DNA of 64,000 nucleotides, taken from positions 32,001 to 96,000 of IMG/VR virus record IMGVR_UViG_3300045988_149282. The stretch is one strand, 5' to 3'. A program made the translations under genes and the position numbers. Source of the stretch: a virus. Lineage: Duplodnaviria; Heunggongvirae; Uroviricota; Caudoviricetes. The notes beneath the pieces are model-generated. The model worked only from the letters and a program-made list of their open reading frames with translations. It did no database searches and was not told where the DNA came from. This document shows positions 1 through 32,002 of this stretch, in pieces. Positions within the stretch are counted from its first letter, which is position 1, and every line of letters starts with the position of its first letter.

Positions 1-3000
1 CTGGCCTGATCTATCAGGAGAAAAATGCTCGTATCACCGCCGATGCTGCGGAAGCGAGTGCGCGTGAATCCCTGCAGACTGAATTCAACAGAAACAAAGC
101 CTCTGTTGCAGAAGAGCTGCATACGCTGTCCACTGAACAAGCTTCCCAGGCAAGCAAGATTACCGGGTTGCAAACAAGCCTTGGCCAGAAGGCCGATGCC
201 AGTGCAGTACAGACAATTTCCCAGAAGGTTGAAGAGCAGGGCAACACCCTTAAATCACAAGGTGCGGCATTGTCTACGCTGGATAATCGCGTAGGAAGTG
301 TTGAGTCTGGTGTATCTGCGAATAGCAAGGCGATCACGGGTCTGCAGTCGACCGTAACCCAGCAGGATAAAACCCTTAGCAGCCAGAGTGAAAGCATCAC
401 CACCCTGAATAACTCGCTGAGCGATATCCAGAGCGATACCGATACTGCCAAAAGCAACCCGAGTAATTTGCTGGTTAACGCCTCCTTTGAGCGTGACCTG
501 GCAGGGTGGTCTGCAGGGAACAGCGTATCCAATGTTATCAAAGCGAGCGCGCCCCATTCTGGTAGCAAAATTCTTGTTTGCGCCGCTGGCACGGTGCAAA
601 TCACGCAATCTGTAAGCGTCGTCGAAGGGCGGACATACAAGCTGTCCTCTTTTGTGCGGTGCACCACTGATGCGGTGATCAGCAGCCCTGGCAACAACAA
701 ACTGCGTATTGGCGCGGCTACGTTGCTCAAAGAGATTCCGATCCGTCCGGAGAATCTGCCCAAAGATGAAACATGGAAGGAGGTCTCTGATACCTGGAAG
801 GCGACGCTGACCGGTAAAGTTGACGTATCGATCATGTCTTCTCTCAAAACCGGTTCTCAGTACTTCGATGATGTTGGTTTTGTTGACGTCACTGATGCTC
901 TGGCGATTGAGGCGAACGCCAGTGCCACCAATGCTTTGACCTCTCGGGTATCGTCTGTTGAGGGCACCATCACAAGTCAGGGGCAACAGATCACTTCGAT
1001 GCAGAACAGTATCAAGAACAAAGCTGACGCCTCAGCTGTGACTAATCTGGCAAACCGCGTAACTGCTGCCGAAAATCAGATCTCCAGCCAGTCCCAGAGC
1101 ATCACCAGCCTGTCAAATTCGCTGGATAACGCCAATGCTGATGCGGATGCCTCGAAAGCGATCATCGGCAACATGCTCAAAAACAACTCTTTTGAACGTG
1201 GTTTCGAAGGTTGGGAGTATGTTGGTTGGACTCTGCTGGAGGCCCAAAACCCCAAATCGGGGAAATACATCATCCAGGCGGGCAAACTGGCCTCTGGCGG
1301 TGACTCGGGCTGCAACCAAACGATCGAGCTGCAGGCTGGCAAGACTTATCGTATCGGCGCATGGGTTCGCAAATCCGCTGACTTCGCGATTAATAATGCC
1401 GGCAACAACAAAATTAGCCTTCGAAACGCAGATCTTACGCCAATAAAGGATATCCCGATCACTGGCGCCGGGCTGTCGACGAACTGGGCGCTTATTAGCG
1501 GCGAGTATACGCCAGCCAAAACCGCGAGCGTGGTTGTGTCTCTGCGCGCAAGTGTCGCTTCAGGCTATATGTATCTCGATGACGTCTTCTGCGTTGACGT
1601 GAGCAATGAGAAAGCGATTGATGCGACGTCCAATGCGTTATCAACCCTCAACAGCACCGTGACCCAGCAGGGAAAAGACATTACGTCTAACTCCAACAGC
1701 ATCACTTCGCTGTCAAACCAGATGGTTAACGGCCGCCAGAACATGTGGGTGCGTAGCGTATACAACGTACAACTGGCGAACAATACCACTGAGCCGACCT
1801 TTAGCGATATCAACGGTAAGGCGCCAATCTCGATCGATGAGGTTCCTGACGCGGCAAAACTGGACTTTGCGAGCGCCGGCAGTTACGTGATCGCGCATTA
1901 CAAAGCCTTCGTGAAAGTCAATGCTGATACCACCATCACTATGGCACCAGGGTCTCGTGTTTTTGATGATACGGGCGCCGTGTACGTGAACGGTGTTAGG
2001 GTTGCCTTTGGTAATGCGAGCTGGAATACGGTTAGCTTTGATCTGAAAGCTGGCTGGAGCACGGTTGAGTTCTTGGTGAACCAATGGACTGGTCAGGCTT
2101 ACATTAACCTCGGCTTTAAACTGTCCGAGAAGGTAGCCCAGCTGAATTCTGCTCTTGGGATGAACGCGCTTTCGAATGCCATTAGCGCCGTCACCTCAAA
2201 CGTCAGCACCGTAGGTGATCGCGTCACGAGCACCTCGCAGAGCGTTACTGATCTGCGAAACAGCCTCGAACAGACCAACGCTAATCTGGCGAATAAGGCA
2301 GATGCACAGGCGCTGTCTACGCTGCAAAATACGGTCTCCAAGCAGGGGGATACGATTTCCAGCCAGGGTAACAGCATCACGAACCTGAATAACACCCTGA
2401 CCGCTGCCAGAAACTCCGGTGACAACCTGATCCCGAACTACGATTTCCTGCAGGGTGCAACTGCGTGGGATATCCAGTATCCGGCGGGCGTCGCTTTCGG
2501 CAACTTCGGTGATGGTAAGGCTGGGGTTAAACTGAACCGGACGACCACTACCAGCCCAGGCATCTTCTCCAACAACAACAAGCCGCTGCCGCTTAATGGT
2601 CAGCGCAAATATCGTGTTGTGGTTAAAGCCAAGGGCGTGTCCGGGGCGATGAACATGTTGATCCGGCGCCAGAACAAAATCGGCCAGACCGACAGCAATT
2701 ATGAAGATAAAAACGTCACACTCACCAGTGAGTGGCAGACCATTACCTGGGAAACTGGGCTTACTGCCTCTAACGCTGATGGTCAGAACTTTAAGCTTTA
2801 TGCGCACCCGGCTAATGCCGAAATCTGGGTTGATACCTTTAAGGTCTTTGATATCACGGATGAGGTGAAGATCAAGGCTAATAGCGATGCGCTGTCTACG
2901 TTGTCGAGCACGGTGACACAGCAGGGTGACAAGATCACCAGCCAGGGCAACAGCATCACTAAGTTGACCAATGACCTCGAGGCCGCTGACGCAAACATCG

Positions 3001-6000
3001 CGAAAAAGGCCGATCAGTCGGCAGTCACTACGCTGACAGGTCGGGTAGAGAAGACGGAGTCCGGTCTGACGGCGGCGAACAGCAACATTACGTCGCTTAG
3101 CAGCTCTCTGAGCCAGCAATCCAAACGCGGCGCTAATCTGCTTCCTGATGGCACTTTTGAAAGCTACGCGGTTGGCCATAATCTATCAAATAATCGCGTT
3201 ATCGTTACCACTGATGACTCTCACGGTGGAAATAAGTGCATCCGTGTGACGCGTCCGAACGACTACAACGCCAACGCAACAGATAACAGCGATAACCATA
3301 TTTTTAGCGGATTTCAGGTTCGCGATAACGCAGTGTTCTACATGGAGTGCTGGGTTAAGCTGGATGCCAATAGCACAGCCATGGCCGAGAACACGCAGAT
3401 CTCTATCGGTTTGTCGCTCCAGTATCAGGATAACTCGTGGCAGTGGCCGGCAGTAACTAAAGCTGCGAAAGATCTGTCTACAGCTCAATGGACGAAGGTT
3501 TCTGGTTACCTGAAATCAACGAAGAGCGGTATTAAGCAGGCAATGGTGAGGATTTCTATTCCTAACGTTAGCAGCGTTAAGGCGGGAAACTCATTCCTTA
3601 TTGATGACCTGGTCATTACCGAAGTAACTGATGCCTACAATGCGCAAAGTACAGCAGATGCTAACGCCAATGCGATTTCGACACTGGACTCGACCGTTTC
3701 CCAACAGGGCGACCAGATCACCAGTCAGGGTAACAGCATCACCAAACTGACAAATGACCTGGCAACGACCAATAACAACGTCAGTAAAAAAGCGGATCAG
3801 AGCGCTTTAAGCGTGTTGTCCGGGCGCGTCGATCAAACAGAATCGGGCTTATCCTCTGCGAATAGCAGTATCACTGCGCTTAATTCATCTGTACGCGCAG
3901 GGAATGCGACAAGTGGCGATTTGATTAGCAACCCGACATTTGACCCAGAGTTTAGTCAGATGGGCTTCACTGTGGTTCCCAGCTCGTCTGAGGGCGTGCC
4001 AGCCAATTGCCCATACGCTTATGTTGCACGCATTGCGGCTCGCGACCATCACCCAAATTTTGCTGCTATTCCGGCGACATTGGGGGATGTCTATGAAATG
4101 TCTGCTCTCGTCGCGTGTGGCACTGGCTCCGCTGATTTCAACCTGTATCTCGGAACCGCAACACGGCCAAGCGGCAGCGTGGGCGCGCCTCTGTCATCTG
4201 GCGGCAACCGCAAGGCGTCGGCCACATGGCAGCGAGTAACCTGGCGTTTCAAAATTACTCAGGGGATTGTCGATCGCGGCTTCTTCCGTCCATTCCTGCA
4301 AATCAACCAGTCCAGCCCGTTCGGCACCGTCTGGTATGTGACCGACTGGCATCTGCGGAACGTAACCGACTCCTCCAAAGTTCAGGATTCTCTCGATGCT
4401 ACGGCGAAAGCGGTTGATTCGCTGACCTCTACGGTAAATCAGCAGGGGGAGAATATCTCCAGCATTGGTACACGTACTACCAATCTTGAGAATAATTTGA
4501 GAACAACAAATGCAAACGTTGCTCAAAAAGCGGACGCCAATGCTCTGACGGCACTGACCAACCGTGTTACCCAGACCGAAAAAGACATTAACTCAACGAG
4601 TTCTTCTGTCACGAATCTGAACAACAAGGTTGATGCAATTTCTGTCGGCGGTACAAACCTGATCAAGAACTCCGGCGATATGACCGGCTGGTCGAACGTT
4701 GTCAGCGATACGTATCGTGGTAACGCGGTAATTGGCGCAACTGTAAAAGCCGGCTCCGGTTACAGGGATTTGCGGGAAATCACGCTTGAGTCGCCGGTCG
4801 ATGCAGGTGAGTACGTTTACAGCTTCTATGCGAAAGGCGGTGTTGCTGGCCAGATTATGACGGCGTTCTTCTACAATCCGAACACTACAACGTCTATCGA
4901 GACCAGCCAGGGTGCGAAGGGTAACAACAGTGATGGCCGTGCGCAGTTCACGCTGACCACTTCATGGGCCCGCTATTGGGTTAAGTGGAAACAGACACCT
5001 ACCACGAGTACCAAGCGCCTGATTCTGTGTCGTATCGAGAGCAATACCTCCAAAGACCAGACGGTGTACATCAACAGTCCGAAGTTTGAGGTAGGTAACG
5101 TTGTTTCCGACTGGAACGAGTCTCCGTCTGATAGTGCCAGTGCGTCGGCTGTGGACTCGCTGACAACGAAAGTGAATCAGCAGGGCACTTCCATTAGCTC
5201 TATCGGAAATCGCACCACATCGTTGGAAAACGGGTTATCGACAGCTCAAAACAACATTGCCAAGAAGGCTGATGCTTCTGCATTGCAGGATCTCCGGAAC
5301 ACGGTGACATCTCAGGGTGATGATTTAACCGCGGCGAACAGCAGCATTACCAGCCTGCATGCCTCGATGAACCGTCGCACTGTGTTTACTGTCACTGCAC
5401 GGGGTAATGGCAACAGCGTTACCCATGGGGTGTTTGATGAAAGCGGCAAGAATCTGTTTACCCCTGGTCGCAGCTGGGCGCTGGTCACTTTTGCAAAACA
5501 CAGCGACGGATCAACGGTGATTGCGACCTCCAAAACATACGATGTCTTTGGCAGCGCGAATAATGGCGCCACGATGTCGGCTGATATCGAGGCACTGGCC
5601 AGTGGGACTTACGTTTGCGTCCTGACATTCGATGAGCCAACTGGCAACCGAGGTAAGGTGTTGTCTGCCCTGGAATCTCTTGGTGGCACTTCCGAAGTCG
5701 TTAACTCTCTGCCGTATCGTGGCGCCTACATTCTCCTTGGCCGCAAAGGTATGAAGCCGGGCGATGGTCTGGAACTGCGTGCGCCAACCGGTGGCGACGG
5801 CACCGCCCACATTTCGACCTCAGTCGAGTTTGTGAACGGGGTAATGATGGGGCTGGGCGCCGCTGGTGGTGTGATGATGAAGGCTGATGCGAACGCATCT
5901 GCAATTACCACGCTCCAGAATACAGTGAAGACCCAAGGGGATAATATTGACTCCCTGAGCTCCTCGACAACAGCGCTGGAAAACAGCCTTGCGTCCAGTA

Positions 6001-8456
6001 ACGCCAGCGTGGATGCAGCAAGCCAGATCCCCGGTAACCTGATCGTAAACCCGTCTTTTGAGCGTGGTACGGAGGGCTACACTGGTTGGAGCGGTATTGC
6101 CACGGTGGCAACGCTGCAGGTTCCACATCTTGGCACCAAAGCCGCCAAACTAGCGGCGGGTGGTTCTGCAGGCGTGGGCCAGAAGATCTCCTTCAAAAAG
6201 GATCGGTCGTACAAAATTGGTATTTGGGCAAAGCAGGACCCTAATACCACCATTCAGTCGACCGACAACACAAAATTCCGTGTGGCTGACGGTACTGGCC
6301 TGATTGCAAGTAAGGTTTATGGTCCGTTCACCTCGAACTGGCAGGAGGTGTCATGGACATGGAAGGCGACAAAGGATGTCCTTGCTGACGTTCAGTTCAC
6401 TGCTTTCTTGTCAGCCGGCGCGATGTACTTTGATGATTTTTACGTCGTCGATGTGACCGACTCAGTTGAAACTCAGGCGAACTCGAGTGCGATCACGAAG
6501 CTCGATAGTCGTGTGACCAAGACAGAGAATGACATCACCAGCCAGGGCAGCCAGGTTACGCAACTTAAGAATGACCTTGCTACCACAAACACAAATGTTT
6601 CGAAGAAAGCGGATGCAGCTGCGTTAACGGCATTAACGAACCGCGTCACGCAGAATGAGAAAGAAATTGGAACCCAGAGCAGCCAGACAACTTCGCTCAA
6701 AAACTCTTTGAGCACTGTTCAGGCAATGGGAAGCAACCCGTGGTTTGATGGTTCTCTGGAGACGTACTCCGAAAACCAGCAGATCAGCGGCTCGCGCGCG
6801 GTCGTCGTCAGCTCTCAGAAACGAAGCGGAACGAAGTCGTTGCGTGTTTCCCGCGGCGCCGGTGAGGGCGGAAACAGCGATAAAACCATCGGTAAGTGGA
6901 TTGCTCTGCGTGAAAATGCGGTATTCCGCATTGAACTCTGGGCGATGATGCCGGCAGATCAGTCGCCATCATCCGGGTGGTCAACGCTCGTTGGTTTGCA
7001 GACCCAAAACGCTGCCAACAACAATAACTGGCCGACGGCAATCACTATCAATGAAGCCGCATTGGGTGCAAGAGGCGCATGGAAGAAATTCACCGGTACG
7101 CTCCGTGTAGCCGCTGGCCACACTCGCGGCGCATTTTGGGTATCTACCCGCGGCACAACTGGCACTGGTACACCGGGGTATGATCTGTATATCGATGACG
7201 TTGTTGTCACCGATATCACCGACGCAAAAGAGGCTCAAGATTCGGCTAATTCGAACGCATCCGCGCTCACCAGCCTTACCTCACGTGTTACCAATGTAGA
7301 AGGGCAGGTGACATCCCAGGCGTCTCAGCTGTCCTCTTTGACGTCCCAGGTGAATGATGCGTCTTCGAAGGTTGATCAGATGGCGCAAACCATCACCAAC
7401 AACGAGAAAACGCAGTCGTCGCTGAATACCAGCTTGCAGTCGCAAATTGATGCGCAGGCATCGGCAAACATCAAGAACCAGACGGAGTTGAATAACGCCA
7501 CCACTTCGATGGCGGCAATTAAATCAACTCAGCAGACTCAGGCCACAACGATTAGTGCACTGTCTCAGCAGCAAACGAATTTAACGGCCCAGGTAGGAGG
7601 CCAGTCAGCCGAGCTGCAGGAGCTGAAGAAAACGGTTGTTGAAAACGGCAACGTTAACAGCACCTGGATGGTCAAAATGGAAACCAACAGCAACGGTAAA
7701 AAGTATGCTGCTGGTATAGCTTTAGGTATCGATGGCAAAAATTTGCAGAGCCAGTTTCTGGTTCAGACTGATCGCTTCGGCTTAATCAACACCTCTAACG
7801 GGAATACGACTACACCTTTCGTTATCGAAAATGGCGTTGCGTATATTAATGCCGCTGTCATTAAAGATGGCTCGATCACCAATGCGAAAATTGGAGGCGA
7901 AATCCGTTCTGACAATTTCGTTAATGGTTCAAATGGCTGGAGAATTGGAAAAGACGGTAGTTCACAGTTCAACAATGCGATATTCAGAGGTCATATTGAA
8001 GCGCGCAGTGGTACGTTCAAAGGAACCCTGGAAGCTCAAAACTTTATTGGTGATATCGCTGTAGCTCGGCGTTATGCGGGTTTATCGTTCCGTCGTAACA
8101 ACACCGTACAGCGTGATGGTCGTTACCAGAACCGCGGATACGGTATGACTATTGTGCTAAGTTGCACCCTGATATATCAGGTTACTGGGGGGAATGAGGA
8201 TCGTAACGGTTATATTGTTGAAATGACATTTAACGTTGGCGGTCAGGAGGCAACTCGCAGTTTCCCGATCAACCCGCGAATGAATATGGGCTCCTACTCG
8301 ATGGAGTTTCGTTTTGCAGCGGATATTCCAGGCAACTATGACAACGTCCCGTTCTTTGTAAGAGCACGTGGTCGGGATGCTACTTGGAACTACCAGTGTT
8401 ATGTAGAAAACATCACTGCCACTGCTTTCCGTACAAACAGCAACTCATTCAGCTAA
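1..8456 (+). CDS. Giant tail fiber protein, 5' end probably outside the window; coiled-coil segments alternating with carbohydrate-binding-module-like domains
   Basis: Single reading frame ending at TAA 8454-8456 and still open back to nt 3 with the same repeat pattern. About 8 recurrences of heptad-like A/S/T/Q-rich stretches followed by an N-x-S-F-E-R-G-x-E-G-W type signature. C-terminal fiber-tip-like region. Confidence 0.8.
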   Translation, partial: GLIYQEKNARITADAAEASARESLQTEFNRNKASVAEELHTLSTEQASQASKITGLQTSLGQKADASAVQTISQKVEEQGNTLKSQGAALSTLDNRVGSVESGVSANSKAITGLQSTVTQQDKTLSSQSESITTLNNSLSDIQSDTDTAKSNPSNLLVNASFERDLAGWSAGNSVSNVIKASAPHSGSKILVCAAGTVQITQSVSVVEGRTYKLSSFVRCTTDAVISSPGNNKLRIGAATLLKEIPIRPENLPKDETWKEVSDTWKATLTGKVDVSIMSSLKTGSQYFDDVGFVDVTDALAIEANASATNALTSRVSSVEGTITSQGQQITSMQNSIKNKADASAVTNLANRVTAAENQISSQSQSITSLSNSLDNANADADASKAIIGNMLKNNSFERGFEGWEYVGWTLLEAQNPKSGKYIIQAGKLASGGDSGCNQTIELQAGKTYRIGAWVRKSADFAINNAGNNKISLRNADLTPIKDIPITGAGLSTNWALISGEYTPAKTASVVVSLRASVASGYMYLDDVFCVDVSNEKAIDATSNALSTLNSTVTQQGKDITSNSNSITSLSNQMVNGRQNMWVRSVYNVQLANNTTEPTFSDINGKAPISIDEVPDAAKLDFASAGSYVIAHYKAFVKVNADTTITMAPGSRVFDDTGAVYVNGVRVAFGNASWNTVSFDLKAGWSTVEFLVNQWTGQAYINLGFKLSEKVAQLNSALGMNALSNAISAVTSNVSTVGDRVTSTSQSVTDLRNSLEQTNANLANKADAQALSTLQNTVSKQGDTISSQGNSITNLNNTLTAARNSGDNLIPNYDFLQGATAWDIQYPAGVAFGNFGDGKAGVKLNRTTTTSPGIFSNNNKPLPLNGQRKYRVVVKAKGVSGAMNMLIRRQNKIGQTDSNYEDKNVTLTSEWQTITWETGLTASNADGQNFKLYAHPANAEIWVDTFKVFDITDEVKIKANSDALSTLSSTVTQQGDKITSQGNSITKLTNDLEAADANIAKKADQSAVTTLTGRVEKTESGLTAANSNITSLSSSLSQQSKRGANLLPDGTFESYAVGHNLSNNRVIVTTDDSHGGNKCIRVTRPNDYNANATDNSDNHIFSGFQVRDNAVFYMECWVKLDANSTAMAENTQISIGLSLQYQDNSWQWPAVTKAAKDLSTAQWTKVSGYLKSTKSGIKQAMVRISIPNVSSVKAGNSFLIDDLVITEVTDAYNAQSTADANANAISTLDSTVSQQGDQITSQGNSITKLTNDLATTNNNVSKKADQSALSVLSGRVDQTESGLSSANSSITALNSSVRAGNATSGDLISNPTFDPEFSQMGFTVVPSSSEGVPANCPYAYVARIAARDHHPNFAAIPATLGDVYEMSALVACGTGSADFNLYLGTATRPSGSVGAPLSSGGNRKASATWQRVTWRFKITQGIVDRGFFRPFLQINQSSPFGTVWYVTDWHLRNVTDSSKVQDSLDATAKAVDSLTSTVNQQGENISSIGTRTTNLENNLRTTNANVAQKADANALTALTNRVTQTEKDINSTSSSVTNLNNKVDAISVGGTNLIKNSGDMTGWSNVVSDTYRGNAVIGATVKAGSGYRDLREITLESPVDAGEYVYSFYAKGGVAGQIMTAFFYNPNTTTSIETSQGAKGNNSDGRAQFTLTTSWARYWVKWKQTPTTSTKRLILCRIESNTSKDQTVYINSPKFEVGNVVSDWNESPSDSASASAVDSLTTKVNQQGTSISSIGNRTTSLENGLSTAQNNIAKKADASALQDLRNTVTSQGDDLTAANSSITSLHASMNRRTVFTVTARGNGNSVTHGVFDESGKNLFTPGRSWALVTFAKHSDGSTVIATSKTYDVFGSANNGATMSADIEALASGTYVCVLTFDEPTGNRGKVLSALESLGGTSEVVNSLPYRGAYILLGRKGMKPGDGLELRAPTGGDGTAHISTSVEFVNGVMMGLGAAGGVMMKADANASAITTLQNTVKTQGDNIDSLSSSTTALENSLASSNASVDAASQIPGNLIVNPSFERGTEGYTGWSGIATVATLQVPHLGTKAAKLAAGGSAGVGQKISFKKDRSYKIGIWAKQDPNTTIQSTDNTKFRVADGTGLIASKVYGPFTSNWQEVSWTWKATKDVLADVQFTAFLSAGAMYFDDFYVVDVTDSVETQANSSAITKLDSRVTKTENDITSQGSQVTQLKNDLATTNTNVSKKADAAALTALTNRVTQNEKEIGTQSSQTTSLKNSLSTVQAMGSNPWFDGSLETYSENQQISGSRAVVVSSQKRSGTKSLRVSRGAGEGGNSDKTIGKWIALRENAVFRIELWAMMPADQSPSSGWSTLVGLQTQNAANNNNWPTAITINEAALGARGAWKKFTGTLRVAAGHTRGAFWVSTRGTTGTGTPGYDLYIDDVVVTDITDAKEAQDSANSNASALTSLTSRVTNVEGQVTSQASQLSSLTSQVNDASSKVDQMAQTITNNEKTQSSLNTSLQSQIDAQASANIKNQTELNNATTSMAAIKSTQQTQATTISALSQQQTNLTAQVGGQSAELQELKKTVVENGNVNSTWMVKMETNSNGKKYAAGIALGIDGKNLQSQFLVQTDRFGLINTSNGNTTTPFVIENGVAYINAAVIKDGSITNAKIGGEIRSDNFVNGSNGWRIGKDGSSQFNNAIFRGHIEARSGTFKGTLEAQNFIGDIAVARRYAGLSFRRNNTVQRDGRYQNRGYGMTIVLSCTLIYQVTGGNEDRNGYIVEMTFNVGGQEATRSFPINPRMNMGSYSMEFRFAADIPGNYDNVPFFVRARGRDATWNYQCYVENITATAFRTNSNSFS

Positions 8457-8512
8457 CATGGCGCCCCTTTGGGGCGCCCACTAAACCGTATTAACTCAAG
8501 GAAGAGTAAATT

Positions 8513-9952
8513 ATGGCAATGTATGAAGTTGGCACCATAACGGGTGCTGCAAACCAGGCAAAGGTTACAGGTATTTCCACTAAGTGGTCGGAGACCGCCC
8601 TGGGTATTCAAGAGGGTTCGATTCTTGTCATTTATCGCAATGGAAGTGCCGATCTGTATGCCATCAAATCCGTTAATAACGACACTCAACTGACCCTGAC
8701 GAGAAACATTACAACAGCTTTTTCTGGTGCGAAATATGGAATTATCACATCAGAAACAGCCAGCACATCGTCTTTTGCTAATCAACTCGCCAGTGCATTC
8801 ACTCTGTGGCGTAATGTTGTCCAGGGGTGGTCTACAGCACTAACAGGTAGTGGCAATATTACAATAACAGACCCTTTAACGGGTGTATCTGTGACTGTTC
8901 CAGCAATTTCAGGAATGGCGAAAGCGTCCGATCTCACAGCACTTAGCAACTCGCTGAAAGATGTAGCGAAGACTACAACGGCAAACACATGGACGCAGGC
9001 GCAGACGTGGAACGCAGCATCTACGTTTAAAAATAACCTTACGGTGAACGGCACTTTTACAGTAAATGGGAATTTCTACGGCAAGCAGCTTGCTGGAGGC
9101 CACATAGAGTTAACAGGGGCGACCCCTTATATCGACTTTCACCACGGCAACACCACAACAGACTACACACATCGAATTATTACTGAGAATGGGGCATTGG
9201 CTGTTTATCCGGGCTTACGCGTCCGTGGTGGATTGGGGATTTATGGTGTAGCTACGCAATACGGAGATCAGTACGGGCAGGGATTTATCACCCGTCTTAA
9301 CACAGATCCAGGTAACGTAGCTAACGGCACAATCATTGCCTCTCCACGCGTCACAACTAGGTTCAACACTCGCGGCAGTGACACAAATGTTGACGGCGGA
9401 CAGGGGGCCATGTGGTTTGAGGAGCAGGTGGGGACGAACCATAGGCTGGTATTCATGCTTGGTGGTTTCAGTCAGCCTGTCCAATATTGGCACCACTTGC
9501 CTGATGGGCGGATCTATAGTAGTTCTCGCGGCGATGTTGCATTTAACGGGACGTCCGACGAACGGTTGAAACATAGTATAGAACCGACTGACGGCCATTT
9601 GTCAGTCGATCGCATTCGTCAGCTTGAGCTGGTGACGTTCGTCTATAACGATGACGAGCAGGAACGAGTACGCCGCGGGATTATTGCGCAGCAGGCTCAG
9701 CTGGTCGACAAACAGTATGTTAAGCAGATTAACACATCGTATATTCTCAACGGTGAGAAAGTGGACGATGACCGTCTGCAACTCGATAATAACGTTATTC
9801 TAATGGATACATTGGCGGCGGTTAAAGTACTGATTCAGCGAGTTGAAGAACTTGAGAATAAACTTAACTCATCAGAAGGGAGCGACGCCATAAATACAAA
9901 CCAGAATACCTTCGATACAGGCGTGGCCATGAGAAGTGAGCAATCAAATTAA
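8513..9952 (+). CDS. Tail fiber/tailspike protein with C-terminal intramolecular chaperone (peptidase S74-like) domain
   Basis: ATG 8513 with AGGAAG ribosome-binding site. C-terminal SDERLKHSIEP...coiled-coil signature typical of self-cleaving chaperone domains of phage fibers; HxH-containing fiber region. Confidence 0.75.
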   Translation: MAMYEVGTITGAANQAKVTGISTKWSETALGIQEGSILVIYRNGSADLYAIKSVNNDTQLTLTRNITTAFSGAKYGIITSETASTSSFANQLASAFTLWRNVVQGWSTALTGSGNITITDPLTGVSVTVPAISGMAKASDLTALSNSLKDVAKTTTANTWTQAQTWNAASTFKNNLTVNGTFTVNGNFYGKQLAGGHIELTGATPYIDFHHGNTTTDYTHRIITENGALAVYPGLRVRGGLGIYGVATQYGDQYGQGFITRLNTDPGNVANGTIIASPRVTTRFNTRGSDTNVDGGQGAMWFEEQVGTNHRLVFMLGGFSQPVQYWHHLPDGRIYSSSRGDVAFNGTSDERLKHSIEPTDGHLSVDRIRQLELVTFVYNDDEQERVRRGIIAQQAQLVDKQYVKQINTSYILNGEKVDDDRLQLDNNVILMDTLAAVKVLIQRVEELENKLNSSEGSDAINTNQNTFDTGVAMRSEQSN

Positions 9953-22863: not shown

Positions 22864-22938
22864 GATGGTGTAGCTCAGCGGTAGAGCAGTTGGCTGTTAA
22901 CCAACTGGTCGGTGGTTCGAATCCACCCACCATCGCCA
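22864..22938 (+). tRNA. tRNA-Asn (anticodon GTT)
   Basis: Manual cloverleaf: acceptor GATGGTG/CACCATC, D-arm GCTC-AGCGGTA-GAGC, anticodon loop CTGTTAA, T-arm GGTGG-TTCGAAT-CCACC, encoded CCA. Confidence 0.85.
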
Positions 22939-22943
22939 ATTTA

Positions 22944-23030
22944 GGGGAGTTAGTCCGTAGAGGTAGCGGTGTAGACTGTAAATCTACTGTCATGGCGACT
23001 CGGGTGGTTCGACTCCATCACTCCCCACCA
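22944..23030 (+). tRNA. tRNA-Tyr (anticodon GTA), long variable arm
   Basis: Acceptor GGGGAGT/ACTCCCC, anticodon stem-loop GTAGA-CTGTAAA-TCTAC, long variable arm, T-loop TTCGACT, encoded CCA. Confidence 0.8.
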
Positions 23031-23034
23031 AATT

Positions 23035-23110
23035 GCCGGTTTAGCTCAGTTGGTAGAGCGCCTGCCTTGTAAGCAGGATGTCAGCGGTTCGAGTCCGTTA
23101 ACCGGCACCA
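23035..23110 (+). tRNA. tRNA-Thr (anticodon TGT)
   Basis: Acceptor GCCGGTT/AACCGGC, D-arm GCTC-AGTTGGTA-GAGC, anticodon loop CTTGTAA, T-loop TTCGAGT, encoded CCA. Confidence 0.8.
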
Positions 23111-23404
23111 ACATAATATTGAGAACATTGGCGTAACGGGTTCATATCCCAATTTATGAATATAATGTTGCGTTGCAGCGTGACAACCAGTGTTCTCAAC
23201 ATTGTGGTGAATGCACAGGCTGATGTGCGACGTAGAAGCAAGCGGATGAACTGCCTGAAGGCCGCTAACGTAGGCAATGCCGGAGATCAGCACCGGCCAT
23301 CACAATTTGGCTCTCTTGCAACAGCATAACGCTGAAATACGTCCAACCTGGTGCGGTCTGATCACCCGCCGTTAGCTCCACGAAACGGAGCACACAACAC
23401 AATT

Positions 23405-23491
23405 GGAGAGTAGGGAGCATGGTGCTCAAGCGGTCTTGAAAACCGTCCCATTGTGCAAACGATGATGGTTCGATTCCATTACTCTCCGCCA
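23405..23491 (+). tRNA. tRNA-Ser (anticodon TGA), long variable arm
   Basis: Acceptor GGAGAGT/ACTCTCC, anticodon stem-loop GCGGT-CTTGAAA-ACCGT, long variable arm, T-arm GATGG-TTCGATT-CCATT, encoded CCA. Confidence 0.7.
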
Positions 23492-23494
23492 GAC

Positions 23495-23570
23495 ACAGCG
23501 TTGAGCGGTTTGGCCTTTTAATCAACCAGATTAAGACTCCGCTAACATAAACCAGACCGCTCAACGCTGT
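23495..23570 (+). other. Long hairpin (19-bp stem, about 38-nt loop) immediately after tRNA-Ser
   Basis: ACAGCGTTGAGCGGTTTGG pairs with CCAGACCGCTCAACGCTGT with one wobble position. Confidence 0.5.
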
Positions 23571-23645
23571 GATAGACAATTACGGCAGACGTTCTTAACC
23601 ATAGCTTGCTAACATCCTAGCAACACTTTTTTCAGCGCAAAATTC

Positions 23646-23668
23646 AAAGGGGCTTCGGCCCCTTTTTT
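23646..23668 (+). terminator. Rho-independent terminator
   Basis: AAAGGGGC-ttcg-GCCCCTTT followed by a T-run; its 5' half is duplicated at about 24553-24581. Confidence 0.8.
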
Positions 23669-23784
23669 GATTTGTTGACACTTAGTTATATTCACGTATC
23701 GTTTTATCGCTTTGATCCGAGGCAGCGTTAGACTGCCTTCATGTTCCTGATTAGATCGCAGCAGTTAAACATGGAGACAAATTA

Positions 23785-24339
23785 ATGAAGAAGTGCCATC
23801 TCAATATTTTCGCATCTCTAATAATTGCGTTAACACTAACAGGGTGTAACGAATCTGAAATAGATGAATTAACGTTAATAGGCAAAGATAAAAGTGAACT
23901 TGAACAAAATTATAAAGCCCAATTCAAGAAGCTAACACAAAATGTTGAAGTGTTTATTCTTCAAGATAAAAATAGTCCGACTGAAAAAGAACCGCATACG
24001 AATGGCAACCTGATCGACGGAAAAGTCGAAATGTCATTAACCAGTAATGTTGGTAAGTATACATTCATCCAGATAAGTGAAATGCTGACAAAGGAGTACG
24101 GAAAACCCGTTGCTACAAAAGATCGTGTTTTTAACAGAGAAGCAGTATCTGGCATGGACTGTATTGAAACTAAAACTTGTGGAGCTGGTAAATATTATGA
24201 AATCTTTCGAGGGAAGGATAGATTGATTATGGTGTCAAACGGTGCCGGTCTTTTACACGAAAAGGAAGGTGTAACACTACTCACCATCACCGATAAACAA
24301 TTTAAATTTTCTCGTTTAGAAGAAGATAAAATAAAATAA
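23785..24339 (+). CDS. Lipoprotein (184 aa) in AT-rich islet; candidate superinfection-exclusion/lysogenic-conversion factor
   Basis: Signal peptide with lipobox LTGC; GGAG ribosome-binding site; coding DNA looks AT-rich by eye; flanked by about 29-bp direct repeats. Confidence 0.6.
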   Translation: MKKCHLNIFASLIIALTLTGCNESEIDELTLIGKDKSELEQNYKAQFKKLTQNVEVFILQDKNSPTEKEPHTNGNLIDGKVEMSLTSNVGKYTFIQISEMLTKEYGKPVATKDRVFNREAVSGMDCIETKTCGAGKYYEIFRGKDRLIMVSNGAGLLHEKEGVTLLTITDKQFKFSRLEEDKIK

Positions 24340-24344
24340 TGACA

Positions 24345-24372
24345 GGGGCGTATACGCCCCTATCTAAAATTT
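24345..24372 (+). terminator. Hairpin after lipoprotein gene
   Basis: GGGGCG-tata-CGCCCC followed by an A/T-rich tract. Confidence 0.45.
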
Positions 24373-24590
24373 GACATTAAACATATATTGCATCTGGTAT
24401 CAGCAATTTTTGTGCGCTATGTAAGTCCTTACCTGCAATCAGTCTCATAAATATCGGATTTTACGTAGCGTACCATCGTTACAGCAAGCATCAAATTATT
24501 CACTGACATTTATGCGCTGAAAACAGCGTTACTTACCGTAAAATAACAATTTTCAGCGCAAAATTTAAAGAGGCTTCGAATCTGCACAAC

Positions 24591-25886
24591 CTATTGTGCG
24601 TACTCGCCCAATTTTAATGTTTCACGCTTATATTCATCAACTATCTCACATGATTTAATATAGATATGGCACAATAGGTTATCACTATCATCATTATCGT
24701 TTATTGCCATAAGTGCCAACTTTTTCTCATATTCATCGATCGCATCACTCAACTGATCACCTGTAATTACATCTGACTCACTCGAGAAATATAACTGCCC
24801 AAGATTTACCGCATTTTTTCCAGTTTTTCTTTGCTCTATGTAATTTTTAATCATATCCTTCACATCCTTTTCACTACTCAGTATTTCACTTTCGAAATGG
24901 ACATGCTCTGAAATCGACGCGACTCTGCAACCGATCAAACGATGAATATAGTCATCAATAGACGTAACACTATCATTAGCTTTTTTTAGTGCTTCATCAA
25001 AAATGCTCTTTACCTCATTTGGCAAATTTTTAAAATAATCATCAATTAAACCAGATAATGGTGTTTGGTAGTTCATTAATACCGATGAAGCAACTTGCGG
25101 ACGACGAGCCACCCAGATTTCTTTGACTTCAACTTGAGAATAATATTCCTTAATCACGTTCCAAAAGTATTTTAACATCTTGGTTTTAAATATTTTATCA
25201 AATCTATCCTTTATAAATAGCTCTACTTCAGGCATGCTTGAATAAGCATCATCAAAGAATATTTCATCTTTGAAAAAATCATATTTATTTAATAAAGCAT
25301 ACAGTTTTTTTGAATCCAGCGGTTCACGAGAATCGATGTCCAATCCAAAAACTGCAATAACCAACTTCATTTGCGGTGGTATTTTTCCACTCAATTGAAT
25401 AATATATTCCATTTTTTCATCAAAACAATTTCCATCTATGTAAAATCGGTTATCTACATAGACTAATATATTGGTAATATGTTTTATGTACTGAATAACC
25501 TCATGCTTTCTTACCAATGGATAAAAAAACGAATGCATTTCATTTTTATTAAATTGTTTTTTTGTCTGTTCAATGATTGGTATGACATTATTGTACAACT
25601 CATCATGCTGATTTAATAAAGTGTCAAACCATTCTTTGAAAGAATTTTTTCTCATCTCAATCAATGAATCGGTAGTTATCCTAACGGCCTCCAGTGCTGC
25701 CTTTGCACTTTTTCTTGCTTCATAGGCGTTCCACGCTGTTGCACAAAAAGCCGCTGTCGTTATAAAACTACTCAATACAGCAATTTGGTCTGTAACCTTC
25801 CAATCTTGAAATGGCTCAAGTAGTAAACCTAAAAACAAAATTATTATGGAAAACATTAGAATTGCAACAGAAATAAAAACAGGCAT
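24591..25886 (-). CDS. Membrane-anchored protein (about 431 aa, two N-terminal transmembrane helices plus large cytoplasmic domain) of unknown function; candidate abortive-infection/exclusion protein
   Basis: Antisense ORF in AT-rich DNA; GAGAG ribosome-binding site supports start at M12 of the ORF-track product (25886); two hydrophobic helices within the first 60 aa; no catalytic motif recognised. Confidence 0.55.
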   Translation of the reverse strand: MPVFISVAILMFSIIILFLGLLLEPFQDWKVTDQIAVLSSFITTAAFCATAWNAYEARKSAKAALEAVRITTDSLIEMRKNSFKEWFDTLLNQHDELYNNVIPIIEQTKKQFNKNEMHSFFYPLVRKHEVIQYIKHITNILVYVDNRFYIDGNCFDEKMEYIIQLSGKIPPQMKLVIAVFGLDIDSREPLDSKKLYALLNKYDFFKDEIFFDDAYSSMPEVELFIKDRFDKIFKTKMLKYFWNVIKEYYSQVEVKEIWVARRPQVASSVLMNYQTPLSGLIDDYFKNLPNEVKSIFDEALKKANDSVTSIDDYIHRLIGCRVASISEHVHFESEILSSEKDVKDMIKNYIEQRKTGKNAVNLGQLYFSSESDVITGDQLSDAIDEYEKKLALMAINDNDDSDNLLCHIYIKSCEIVDEYKRETLKLGEYAQ

Positions 25887-25981
25887 GTATGCTCTCGTAC
25901 TTACCATTGTTAGTTGCATTAAATATTAACTAAATTAAGTTGTGATTAACAGGCAAGTTTACGATGTATTGCAGACATTAA

Positions 25982-26002
25982 ATAGGTTTTTACTTACCTA
26001 TC
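25982..26002. promoter_or_regulatory. ATAGGT-N-TACTTACCTAT palindromic motif (class-2 dispersed family)
   Basis: Upstream region shared by the divergent 431-aa gene and the glutaredoxin gene. Confidence 0.4.
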
Positions 26003-26058
26003 TTTTATAGTAATATTTATTTTCTGGTTAAGTAACACATAATTATTATGAGGTAAAC

Positions 26059-26304
26059 ATGACTATCGTTATCTACGGACGAGATAACTGCTCATATTGC
26101 AAACGTGCGGTCGAGCTGGCGAAACAACTAAAGGGACACGGCTATGGTGATTATGAGTACATCGACATCACCACTGCCGGTATCGATAAGGAAAAACTTA
26201 GCGAAATTGTTGGCAAACCGGTAGAGACTATCCCCCAGGTACTGATCGATGGCCAACCGATTGGCGGATACACAGAACTGGCTGCATACGTCACCACTCT
26301 CTAA
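26059..26304 (+). CDS. Glutaredoxin/NrdH-like redoxin
   Basis: CSYC active-site motif near N-terminus; 81 aa thioredoxin-fold length. Confidence 0.75.
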   Translation: MTIVIYGRDNCSYCKRAVELAKQLKGHGYGDYEYIDITTAGIDKEKLSEIVGKPVETIPQVLIDGQPIGGYTELAAYVTTL

Positions 26305-26332: not shown

Positions 26333-26514
26333 TTCCCACCAAACTCACGCTTGGTTCCCTTAAAATTCAAAAAACAACGGCTAAATGATTCCATACCTAC
26401 TATGTATGGAATCATTACTGAAAATGAGTTACTTTTACTCTTGATCCTATAAGAATCTATGCCTAATATACTGTTTACTTATACAGTGAATCGGCGTAAC
26501 TCGGTGATTGTCAT

Positions 26515-27618
26515 ATGAAAAATAGCTTTGACAGAGCACGCGCTGCGGAGAACACCTCAAAAGAGGCGATTGAGTATCTCGAAAGAGCATCTCAAATGCA
26601 GGCCGTTATGATCTCGCAGGTCAGCAATGACATGAGATTCTCGGACGCATTCATGTTATTCACTCGCTTATCTCTGCTGATAACAAGACGTCGGCCAGAG
26701 ATCGCTGTTCATTGTATTTTGATACATGTTTTGCCGCACATTGCCGATGTAAAAGTAAGTGACATTAATAGGTTCATGGTGAACCAACTGGTCAACCCAC
26801 TAATACTGGATGGCAAAATTGTTATGGGCCGCCGCGTTTTCTCTCTGATGAAGCAGTTCCTTAGCTGGTGCGCCTTCCAGGGGATGATAGACGTGTCACC
26901 GTTAAACGATATGTCACTAAACAAAGTTGCCGGTGGCGCAAAGCCTACACCTCGCGAGCGGAAGCTGACCGACGCAGAGGTATGGGTGTTCTGGAATATA
27001 TGGGACTACTTCAATGTGTGCGCTGGTACAAAATGGGCGGCCAGGCTGTGTCTTGTATCCGCAAGACGACCTGACGAAGTACTGCGGGCTAAAAAAAGTG
27101 AGTTCAATCTTAAGCGTGGGGTTTGGAATCAAGGCAAGAGGAACAAATCTGCCCGTGAGCATTCTCTGCCTTTAAGCTCATTAATGCGCACTTGTATTGA
27201 AGAGTTGTTCGAATATGGTAAAGACAGCCAGTGGCTCGTGCCTTCGAATAAAAAAATCGGGAAAGACCTTCCTATGTCTAAAGTGGCAATAGCCCAGGCA
27301 TTACGTCGTATTCTGGAACGACCAGAACTGATGGAGCTTGAGCCATTTACACCCCGAGATTTGCGCCGTACTGCGCGTAGTTACTTCCCAGCATTAGGCA
27401 TAAGCCAGGAGGTATCACGTAAAATCATGAACCACAGTCTTGAGGGGATAGATCGGGTCTACGACCGGCACGATTATATGGACGAGATGCGAGACGCCTT
27501 AGAAAGTTTCTCGACGTACATCGCATCAATCGTAGAGCAACCGGATTTAGACGAAATTGACCACAAATTTAAGGGAGATCGTCTATCAACAGAGCTTATT
27601 CGTGTAAATTTTTCATAG
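26515..27618 (+). CDS. Tyrosine site-specific recombinase (integrase/resolvase family)
   Basis: C-terminal catalytic signatures in order: ARRPDEVL (Arg), HSLP, RDLRRT, HSLEGIDRVYDRHDY (His and Tyr nucleophile). Start uncertain; weak ribosome-binding site at 26515. Confidence 0.75.
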   Translation: MKNSFDRARAAENTSKEAIEYLERASQMQAVMISQVSNDMRFSDAFMLFTRLSLLITRRRPEIAVHCILIHVLPHIADVKVSDINRFMVNQLVNPLILDGKIVMGRRVFSLMKQFLSWCAFQGMIDVSPLNDMSLNKVAGGAKPTPRERKLTDAEVWVFWNIWDYFNVCAGTKWAARLCLVSARRPDEVLRAKKSEFNLKRGVWNQGKRNKSAREHSLPLSSLMRTCIEELFEYGKDSQWLVPSNKKIGKDLPMSKVAIAQALRRILERPELMELEPFTPRDLRRTARSYFPALGISQEVSRKIMNHSLEGIDRVYDRHDYMDEMRDALESFSTYIASIVEQPDLDEIDHKFKGDRLSTELIRVNFS

Positions 27619-32000: not shown

Positions 32001-32002
32001 TC

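Follow-up and report, generated by a model that had tools for sequence, protein, structure and literature searches.

An AT-rich islet in the accessory hotspot of an SSU5-type phage-plasmid carries a lipoprotein gene and a divergent AbiC-like gene with a probable role in phage defence

The abortive infection proteins AbiC and AbiP of Lactococcus lactis have been known since the 1990s, without a mechanism or an assigned fold. AbiC is a protein with two transmembrane (TM) segments and is grouped with the membrane-anchored AbiP as the AbiC/P group; it leaves phage DNA replication unaffected and lowers production of the major capsid protein, while AbiP requires its membrane anchor, binds RNA better than single-stranded DNA, halts replication and keeps early transcripts from being switched off (PMC13064643). 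In SSU5-like elements, all resistance-gene insertions lie in a single locus between PhoH and DNA ligase (PMC9600943). A DefenseFinder survey of 1377 SSU5-group elements listed AbiH and other systems, AbiC not being among them (bioRxiv 10.1101/2025.09.12.675607), and as far as we found the literature holds no earlier catalogue of the defence content of this slot. Here we describe an AT-rich islet in a stretch of 64,000 nucleotides of viral DNA (positions 32,001 to 96,000 of IMG/VR record IMGVR_UViG_3300045988_149282; the window), in which a lipoprotein gene of 184 amino acids (aa) faces an antisense gene for a membrane-anchored protein of 431 aa. We conclude that the finding is real, and that the islet is accessory hotspot cargo, probably with a role in defence. 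The reading we favour, which we consider fairly probable, is that the islet consists of two cargo cassettes stacked in a single plastic hotspot and that the 431-aa protein is a single-gene inner-membrane defence of the AbiC/AbiP kind.

A first-pass annotation, made from the sequence alone, had singled out this region as an AT-rich islet beside a tRNA cluster, and the elements it described are all present, at the positions it gave or within a few bases. The G+C content (GC) was 0.336 in the islet (23670-26047) compared with 0.464 window-wide, and the 1-kb bins spanning 24001-26000 had values of 0.363 and 0.313, compared with approximately 0.45 on either side. The gene for the 431-aa protein had a GC of 0.326, equally low in just 0.6% of 1296-nt windows, and the minimum of the whole window lies inside it. 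GC at third codon positions was 0.30 in both islet genes and approximately 0.50 in the genes for glutaredoxin (grx), tyrosine recombinase (int) and DNA ligase. By both measures the islet is foreign in composition to the rest of the element, as is typical of Abi genes.

The order of genes around the islet (DNA ligase, small open reading frames (ORFs), tRNA cluster, glutaredoxin, tyrosine recombinase, helix-turn-helix repressor, CobT-like protein) is that of SSU5-type phage-plasmids, and we assign the element, on sequence, to the SSU5-type phage-plasmids of E. coli. The flanks of the islet matched Escherichia phages Cyrano and CMS-2020a with 94-98% identity, and the match was confined to the flanks. 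The region also matched non-mobilizable IncFIB plasmids of approximately 110 kb. An identical islet (100%) was found in three PLSDB plasmids (MF554642.1, NZ_AP025215.1 and NZ_CP083480.1) and in 5 of 5426 complete E. coli genomes; it was plasmid-borne in all of these and annotated throughout as 'hypothetical protein (x2)'. Neither islet protein had a tblastn match in the INPHARED phage records; relatives of the element are deposited as plasmids.

Comparison with relatives bore out the proposal of accessory DNA at a variable hotspot. We retrieved 69 IMG/VR loci by means of the recombinase and compared 58 loci that had both anchors (55 from IMG/VR and three phage records). The interval from the backbone gene p96 to int ranged from 1.9 to 6.4 kb, and the cargo adjoining the junction was mutually exclusive across relatives (Table 1). 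The gene for the 431-aa protein, which we call AbiC-like, was present in 18 of the 58 relatives and the lipoprotein gene in 15; both occurred together in only three (L017, L018 and L030). Far from being present in all relatives at uniform GC, the two genes are thus patchily distributed and low in GC. The AbiC-like gene was the sole cargo ORF, from the junction to the next semi-conserved gene (grx or PhoH), in 15 of its 18 carriers. Among the 933 PLSDB plasmids with this recombinase, 139 had a detectable AbiC-like gene and 108 the lipoprotein gene.

The boundaries of the hotspot are sharp. The homology of relatives to the window ended at 23669 and restarted at 26048-26066. The sequence TTTTCAGCGCAAAATTCAAAGGGGCTTCGGCCCCTTTTTTG, common to all relatives, is the intrinsic terminator that follows tRNA-Ser, and divergence begins immediately past its T-run. 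A 29-nt direct repeat (27 of 29 positions identical) lies on either side of the lipoprotein gene, at 23629-23657 and 24550-24578, as had been noticed at the outset. The repeat itself stood up to comparison. It does not mark the lipoprotein gene as a mobile unit but was left over from a hotspot junction, and since it is the common junction and terminator we rejected transposon ends and att sites as explanations. In relatives that carry only the AbiC-like gene (such as L007), the left junction directly abuts the 3' end of this gene. By alignment, then, the repeat reflects a left hotspot junction that is present twice, the second time in truncated form, and is not a chance match; two cassettes are therefore stacked in the islet, in the order junction, lipoprotein cassette, truncated junction, AbiC-like cassette, grx. 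Cassette 1 would correspond to 23670-24549 (the lipoprotein moron) and cassette 2 to 24550-26058 (the AbiC-like gene). The stacking would most simply have arisen by recombination between two phage-plasmids bearing different cargo. The islet has the features of moron or hotspot cargo: fixed breakpoints, variability among the 58 loci, foreign GC, and a lipoprotein gene enclosed by a terminator, a promoter-like site and a second terminator.

The first-pass annotation could place the 431-aa protein in no known family, and here our analysis led to a different result. The protein matches PHROG 18168, a family without assigned function. A search of 5.8 billion proteins returned 10 clusters, with identities of 100%, approximately 55% and approximately 30%, and PF16872 (putAbiC) was found in three of these 10 alleles when they were scanned singly. 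The alleles P0008 and P0009, which share approximately 30% identity with the window protein (phmmer E 4e-53 and 7e-50), scored 22.0 and 22.7 bits over residues 132-207, against a Pfam gathering cutoff of 22. A profile built from the 10 alleles recovered 91 proteins, the last of which was an Enterobacter 'putative phage abortive infection protein' (P0091) with PF16872 (E 2.5e-32). PF16872 was present in 45 of 57 full-length distant homologues (best E 1.4e-11), and members from Pectobacterium are named 'putative phage abortive infection protein' by NCBI. The motif LAT.LAF.ATAW.AYEAR.SAKAA in the second predicted TM segment (TM2) is common to the window family and the distant PF16872 proteins. 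The family is small. An exhaustive HMMER search of 1.84 billion representatives gave just 86 matches, and a scan of 185,579 species-representative genomes gave two; the scan used the A2 alignment, the A3 alignment being too divergent as a seed.

Based on this transitive homology, the 431-aa protein very probably belongs to the putAbiC superfamily, and we describe it as a divergent branch of the putAbiC (PF16872) and lactococcal AbiC/P group. Since it belongs to a known family, it does not represent the undescribed defence function for which it had been proposed as a candidate. We do not equate it with the lactococcal AbiC system on this evidence. Our comparison with the lactococcal proteins used a single sequence, the AbiC-like protein of p275A (identified from PMC6458302). 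Scans seeded with the p275A protein drew a blank in the GTDB genomes and gave a single partial relative in IMG/VR. None of the 10 alleles matched the PADLOC AbiC model, and P0091 did so at 1.4e-4 over 60 residues. Searches of the PDB with single sequences and with profiles gave no match, and no solved fold matches the 431-aa protein. The literature on 'Abi_C' (the HEPN proteins SadR and AbiJ) concerns a different domain and was set aside.

We defined the coding region of the AbiC-like gene by comparison with its homologues. The antisense ORF at 24591-25919 encodes 442 aa; we set the start at Met12 (25886), where a GAGAG Shine-Dalgarno sequence and the homologues agree. The upstream in-frame ATG at 25919 has neither a Shine-Dalgarno sequence nor support from homologues, and the resulting length of 431 aa agrees with RefSeq WP_229436823.1. 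A terminator and promoter scan identified no promoter for this gene. A sigma-70-like site at 25867-25840 was rejected because the start codon precedes it and the number of such sites equals that expected from shuffled sequence.

An AlphaFold2 (AF2) model built with 41 homologues (predicted local distance difference test score (pLDDT), 83.8; predicted template modelling score, 0.71) consists of a helix at residues 2-22 (TM1), a continuous helix at residues 31-108 (TM2 and a stalk), a helical domain, and a small four-stranded sheet at residues 321-375. Two N-terminal TM helices had been proposed. TM1 is clear (Kyte-Doolittle hydropathy 2.99); residues 34-53 are borderline at 1.37, yet they are helical in the AF2 model and conserved in the family, so that two helices are likely rather than proven. 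The loop of the hairpin is acidic and the segment past TM2 is rich in Lys and Arg, a charge pattern that would fit a hairpin with a cytoplasmic C-terminal domain. TM2 carries a small-residue motif, T..A..ATAW.AYEA..SAKAA, throughout the family, and together with the stalk it is the best-conserved part of the protein. Column identity falls from 0.65-0.79 in TM2 and the stalk to 0.52 in the core and 0.30 in the C-terminal half.

The AbiC-like family was also found on unrelated mobile elements. P0013 (414 aa, 30% identity; L080, JGI 3300073499, 8001-9245) stands by itself, encoded on the opposite strand, between the Phage_base_V spike and Phage_tail_S genes of a P2-like prophage, a position that we take to be the P2 V-S gap, the home of the AT-rich accessory gene orf30. 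P0091 lies within the transfer region of an integrative and conjugative element (ICE), and P0062 lies beside an IS110 element. The AbiC-like gene has no common neighbour in the P2-like prophage or the ICE either. Judging from these genomic contexts, the family is rare cargo of temperate and conjugative elements of Enterobacterales.

The lipoprotein, which the first-pass annotation had described correctly as a 184-aa protein with an LTGC lipobox, belongs to a narrow family of 16 clusters, all at least 61% identical and all from Enterobacterales. LTG|C followed by Asn is invariant in 13 members, and Asn at position +2 predicts sorting to the outer membrane. The family has 69 invariant residues, including the lipobox and a pair of cysteines (Cys126 and Cys132), and the window copy retains all of them. 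The lipoprotein has no relatives in Pfam, NCBIfam, PADLOC or the PDB, and its AF2 model was poor (pLDDT 46.7) and unusable for a fold search. We found no homology to the exclusion lipoproteins Cor and Llp; a PHROG match to Cor (E 0.041) covered residues 1-50, which is the signal peptide only. In 11-12 of the 15 relatives with the lipoprotein gene, an HNH gene (262-270 aa) follows approximately 10 nt downstream on the same strand. The sigma-70-like site, the gene and the hairpin between the convergent genes, which probably terminates both, have the arrangement of a promoter-gene-terminator moron of a narrow orphan family, and we classify the gene as such. Assignment as an o-spanin was rejected, as the protein is too large and far from the lysis genes, and no tblastn match supported homology to Plp of P1. 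Its most likely role would be at the envelope, such as receptor masking or superinfection exclusion, although this is a guess.

The exclusion or abortive role that had been suggested for both genes thus has homology and context behind it for the 431-aa protein, and for the lipoprotein no positive evidence beyond moron anatomy and envelope location. We think an anti-phage function of the 431-aa protein somewhat likely. In the mechanism we propose, the protein would be made from the resident plasmid-prophage and would protect the lysogen by aborting infections by other phages. Its variable C-terminal domain would recognise a trigger made by the phage, serving as sensor and determinant of specificity. 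The conserved TM2 and stalk, probably oligomeric through the small-residue face of the helix, would execute the response at the membrane, and late phage development would be blocked, as AbiC does for capsid protein production. This division into sensor and effector is suggested by the conservation gradient, and we regard action as a membrane effector as tentative and on the unlikely side.

Several observations weigh against the reading as an AbiC/AbiP-type defence. The window protein taken alone matched nothing in Pfam, NCBIfam or PADLOC, and PF16872 was not detected even at E<=1. Alignment of the family with the p275A protein by hhalign matched residues 131-186 to 193-248 (56 columns, E 0.019, probability 2.4%), and nothing beyond the core. 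The hydrophobicity of TM2 is borderline. In the wide family, His94 is the only polar residue that is nearly invariant, and the protein lacks a basic patch (at most +4 per 30 aa; isoelectric point of the cytoplasmic part, 5.2), which together argue against an enzyme and against non-specific nucleic-acid binding like that of AbiP. For the lipoprotein, the lack of Cor or Llp homology, the poor model and the missing HNH neighbour count in the same direction. A literature search found no experiment on the AbiC-like family or on any Gram-negative PF16872 protein. A lactococcal AbiC-like protein that is 38% identical to AbiC was unprotective in a recent screen (PMC11381338), and homology is therefore no guarantee of activity.

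That inactive protein, the absence of any known phenotype and the small size of the family would also fit a 431-aa protein with no part in defence, whether as a passenger (selfish or neutral), as the product of a decayed gene, or as a protein serving the element in replication or partition anchoring, lysis timing or addiction. We consider this unlikely. The frames are intact and full-length down to approximately 25-30% identity and the N-terminal module is strongly conserved, which indicates purifying selection; the gene is absent from approximately 70-85% of relatives and is therefore not essential to the element. In addition, bona fide Abi genes interchange with the AbiC-like gene at the same slot, and the family recurs as cargo in the unrelated P2-like prophage and ICE. 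Superinfection exclusion, in which the protein would block entry of phage DNA without death of the cell and the lipoprotein would form an outer-membrane layer of the barrier, has precedents in the inner-membrane DNA-entry blockers SieA of P22, Imm of T4 and gp15 of HK97. It would account for the membrane anchor with its conserved membrane-proximal module, for the location in the accessory slot of a temperate element, for the lack of a catalytic signature in the family, and for the co-resident envelope lipoprotein of L017, L018 and L030. However, a cytoplasmic location is predicted for approximately 370 of the 431 residues, the lipoprotein and AbiC-like genes are together in only those 3 of 58 loci and independent elsewhere, and AbiC and AbiP, the sole relatives with a characterised action, interfere once the DNA has entered, with capsid protein production or with replication and early transcripts (PMC13064643). 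We judge exclusion improbable. A bolder version of the defence reading, to which we also give little weight, holds that the clade is an unrecognised one-protein sensor-effector in which the hypervariable C-terminal domain would sense a trigger from the phage and a TM2/stalk oligomer would then depolarise the inner membrane, that the slot is a defence hotspot with more systems (the 302-, 329-, 403- and 529-aa proteins), and that the lipoprotein may be a partner acting at the envelope.

For the lipoprotein, we also considered whether it is the orphaned first gene of a lipoprotein-HNH cassette resembling PDC-M68A, and non-functional or incomplete here. The HNH gene that follows the lipoprotein in most relatives matches PADLOC PDC-M68A and CBASS/Shedu-type endonuclease models, and a tblastn search of the window detected neither an HNH homologue nor a remnant. 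Yet the window lipoprotein is intact in its invariant residues, lipobox and cysteine pair, has its own promoter-like site, Shine-Dalgarno sequence and terminator, and matches no PADLOC model. A 61%-identical copy stands alone in a chromosomal islet of Kluyvera, beside remnants of a type I restriction system. There is also no evident way for a periplasmic lipoprotein and a cytoplasmic nuclease to act as one machine. We regard an orphaned cassette as possible but doubtful.

Table 1. Features of the islet and its flanks, and cargo of the same slot in relatives
Feature	Position in window or number of loci	Strand	Evidence and remarks
tRNA-Ser (UGA)	23405..23491	+	Final backbone gene left of the hotspot; ARAGORN, Rfam tRNA clan match
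Left hotspot junction	23629..23669	+	Conserved intrinsic-terminator hairpin 23646-23665 and T-run; terminator scan, BLAST breakpoints, 7-way alignment
Sigma-70-like promoter site (TTGACA, 16 nt, TATCGT; 10/12)	23675..23702	+	Top site of the scan; consensus match only, total sites not above shuffles
Lipoprotein gene, 184 aa	23785..24339	+	Signal peptide, lipobox LTG|C (Cys21), Asn+2; GGAG Shine-Dalgarno 8 nt upstream; PHROG 15156 (function unknown)
GC-rich hairpin between convergent genes	24341..24364		T-rich tail on minus strand
Second left-junction copy, truncated (27/29)	24550..24578	+	Breaks off in terminator hairpin loop; 12 nt from AbiC-like stop codon
AbiC-like gene, 431 aa and stop	24591..25886	-	GAGAG Shine-Dalgarno; homologue alignment; PHROG 18168 E 4.7e-204
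Variable C-terminal cytoplasmic domain, residues 216-431	24594..25241	-	Helical with small beta-sheet; column identity 0.30; AF2
putAbiC-type core, residues ~126-215	25242..25511	-	PF16872 matches of P0008/P0009 at homologous positions; hhalign 131-186
Membrane-proximal stalk helix, residues 54-108	25563..25727	-	AF2 single helix 31-108; column identity 0.65-0.79
N-terminal membrane hairpin, TM1 residues 2-23 and TM2 residues 34-53	25728..25883	-	Hydropathy, AF2, conservation 0.69 for TM2
Intergenic region between AbiC-like and grx start codons (divergent)	25887..26058		GC 0.267; presumed to hold the AbiC-like promoter
Glutaredoxin gene (grxA-like)	26059..26304	+	Right anchor; homology to relatives restarts ~26048-26066; Pfam PF00462 6.5e-11, BLAST breakpoints
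Slot cargo: AbiC-like alleles	18 loci		Family HMM
Slot cargo: lipoprotein then HNH gene	11-12 loci		PADLOC PDC-M68A, CBASS/Shedu-type endonuclease models, 8e-25
Slot cargo: 302-aa protein	7 loci		No family match; R-x4-H motif by eye
Slot cargo: SASA-esterase protein	3 loci		Pfam
Slot cargo: AbiGi and 403-aa protein	2 loci		Pfam 4.8e-25, PADLOC 5e-47
Slot cargo: AraC-regulated chaperone-usher fimbrial operon	2 loci		Translations read by eye
Slot cargo: AbiH	1 locus		Pfam 3e-62
Slot cargo: PDC-S67	1 locus		6e-36
Slot cargo: 529-aa multi-TM protein	1 locus		No family match
Slot cargo: none adjoining junction, just recurrent PhoH-like, p126, p141, p182-type ORFs	~14 loci		

The backbone next to the islet has variable parts of its own. 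ARAGORN placed tRNA-Asn, Tyr, Thr and Ser at 22864-23491, and an Rfam scan of the islet matched only tRNAs. The cluster in the window has all four, and that of phage Cyrano (L001) is without Tyr; part of the cluster resembles the tRNA region of P1, P7 and D6 at approximately 84-90% identity. P1 has an unrelated lipoprotein gene of its own, plp, beside its tRNAs. Directly after tRNA-Ser, in the conserved flank, is a 20-nt inverted repeat (23494-23571; 95% complementary, 38-nt spacer). On the other side, the tyrosine recombinase gene occupies 26515-27618, and approximately 100 nt upstream of it a near-perfect 16+16-nt palindrome, AATGATTCCATACCTA c TATGTATGGAATCATT, lies at 26384-26416. The palindrome is kept at 88-91% identity in all 15 loci compared with the window by BLAST and is the right-hand boundary of another small variable slot, from grx to int. 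It may be a recombinase target or resolution site.

The slot has further contents in relatives. Among relatives such as L009/L014, L067, L063 and L012, it also holds a 329-aa protein, found with AbiGi and its unannotated 403-aa partner, and a 242-aa protein with weak HEPN-type PADLOC matches, and we regard the slot proteins of relatives, including those of 302, 242, 329, 403 and 529 aa, as candidate unexplored defence genes. In L046 and L048 (approximately 2100-7250), an AraC-family regulator, a chaperone, an 833-aa usher and a 170-aa major subunit (identified by eye) replace the defence genes; this fimbrial operon would be adhesin cargo on a phage-plasmid. L037, L038 and L003 (approximately 5879-7792) have, in the slot and in place of grx, a protein of 637 aa that combines DUF1737 and DUF6645 with a sialate-O-acetylesterase (SASA) domain and may be an enzyme that modifies surface glycans. 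In plasmid pM-64-1161 (L004, NZ_MT773673.1; 8148-10538), ISEcp1-blaCTX-M-64 lies between an AbiC-like allele of 55% identity and the backbone gene p96, so that resistance and putative defence cargo share one slot. The hotspot is also kept, with a 52% AbiC-like allele, in 62-kb plasmids of E. albertii (L006, CP043243.1). The recombinase gene of L006 is in four tblastn pieces and unannotated and the element is approximately half the usual size; these plasmids look like degraded phage-plasmids that retain the AbiC-like gene.

Expectations should stay moderate: prophage hotspots carry defence genes as a rule. The enterobacterial AbiC-like branch is missed by current defence finders, by PADLOC in our scans and apparently by DefenseFinder in the survey of 1377 elements. 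Its natural alleles (100%, 55% and approximately 30% identity) combine a membrane module that does not vary with a cytoplasmic domain that does, and they sit at one genetically tractable slot of E. coli phage-plasmids, which makes the working of AbiC-type proteins testable in E. coli. If the bolder sensor-effector reading were true, it would provide a first mechanism for the 30-year-old AbiC/AbiP group. The same slot gains extended-spectrum beta-lactamase genes, and its cargo bears on the competition and persistence of clinically common phage-plasmids.

The locus resembles known accessory slots and its lipoprotein resembles known exclusion lipoproteins, each in part. Moron slots of P2 include orf30, Z-fun and tin-old. 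Like these, the slot of the islet, which is the locus of the resistance-gene insertions in SSU5-like elements (PMC9600943), has fixed junctions and exclusive cargo between backbone genes; AT-rich sequence and frequent opposite-strand orientation are further common features of such cargo. Cor (of phi80 and N15) and Llp (of T5) are outer-membrane exclusion lipoproteins of coliphages. The window lipoprotein is likewise encoded by a phage-borne accessory gene that is patchily distributed and has expression signals of its own, and it has a lipobox, a residue other than Asp at position +2 and a small periplasmic domain. It differs in being approximately twice the size of Cor and Llp, in having no sequence relationship to them and in being mostly linked to HNH genes in relatives.

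The 431-aa protein shares with the lactococcal AbiC/P proteins an N-terminal two-helix anchor followed by a helical domain; the p275A AbiC-like protein has hydrophobic segments at residues 1-31 and 40-74. PF16872 lies at residues 190-245 of the p275A protein, compared with approximately 126-215 for the core of the window protein. L. lactis AbiC (Prf, pTN20) and AbiP have 338-344 aa, whereas the window protein has 431 aa and, relative to lactococcal AbiC, an extra variable C-terminal domain of approximately 215 aa. Nothing in the lactococcal AbiC-like protein evidently corresponds to the TM2/stalk motif ATAW.AYEA..SAKAA, which is conserved across the proteobacterial branch, and similarity to lactococcal AbiC does not extend over the full length, the PADLOC AbiC model and Pfam being silent on the window protein. 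The enterobacterial PF16872 proteins, such as those of the Enterobacter cloacae complex (P0091) and Pectobacterium (WP_104212255.1), are 19-27% identical to the window protein, their C-terminal halves are essentially unalignable with it, and they are located on an ICE or the chromosome rather than on a phage-plasmid. They have the same hairpin, with LATALAF.ATAWAAYEAR.SAKAA, the same core and the same length class (420-490 aa), and they are, like the window protein, cargo of mobile elements.

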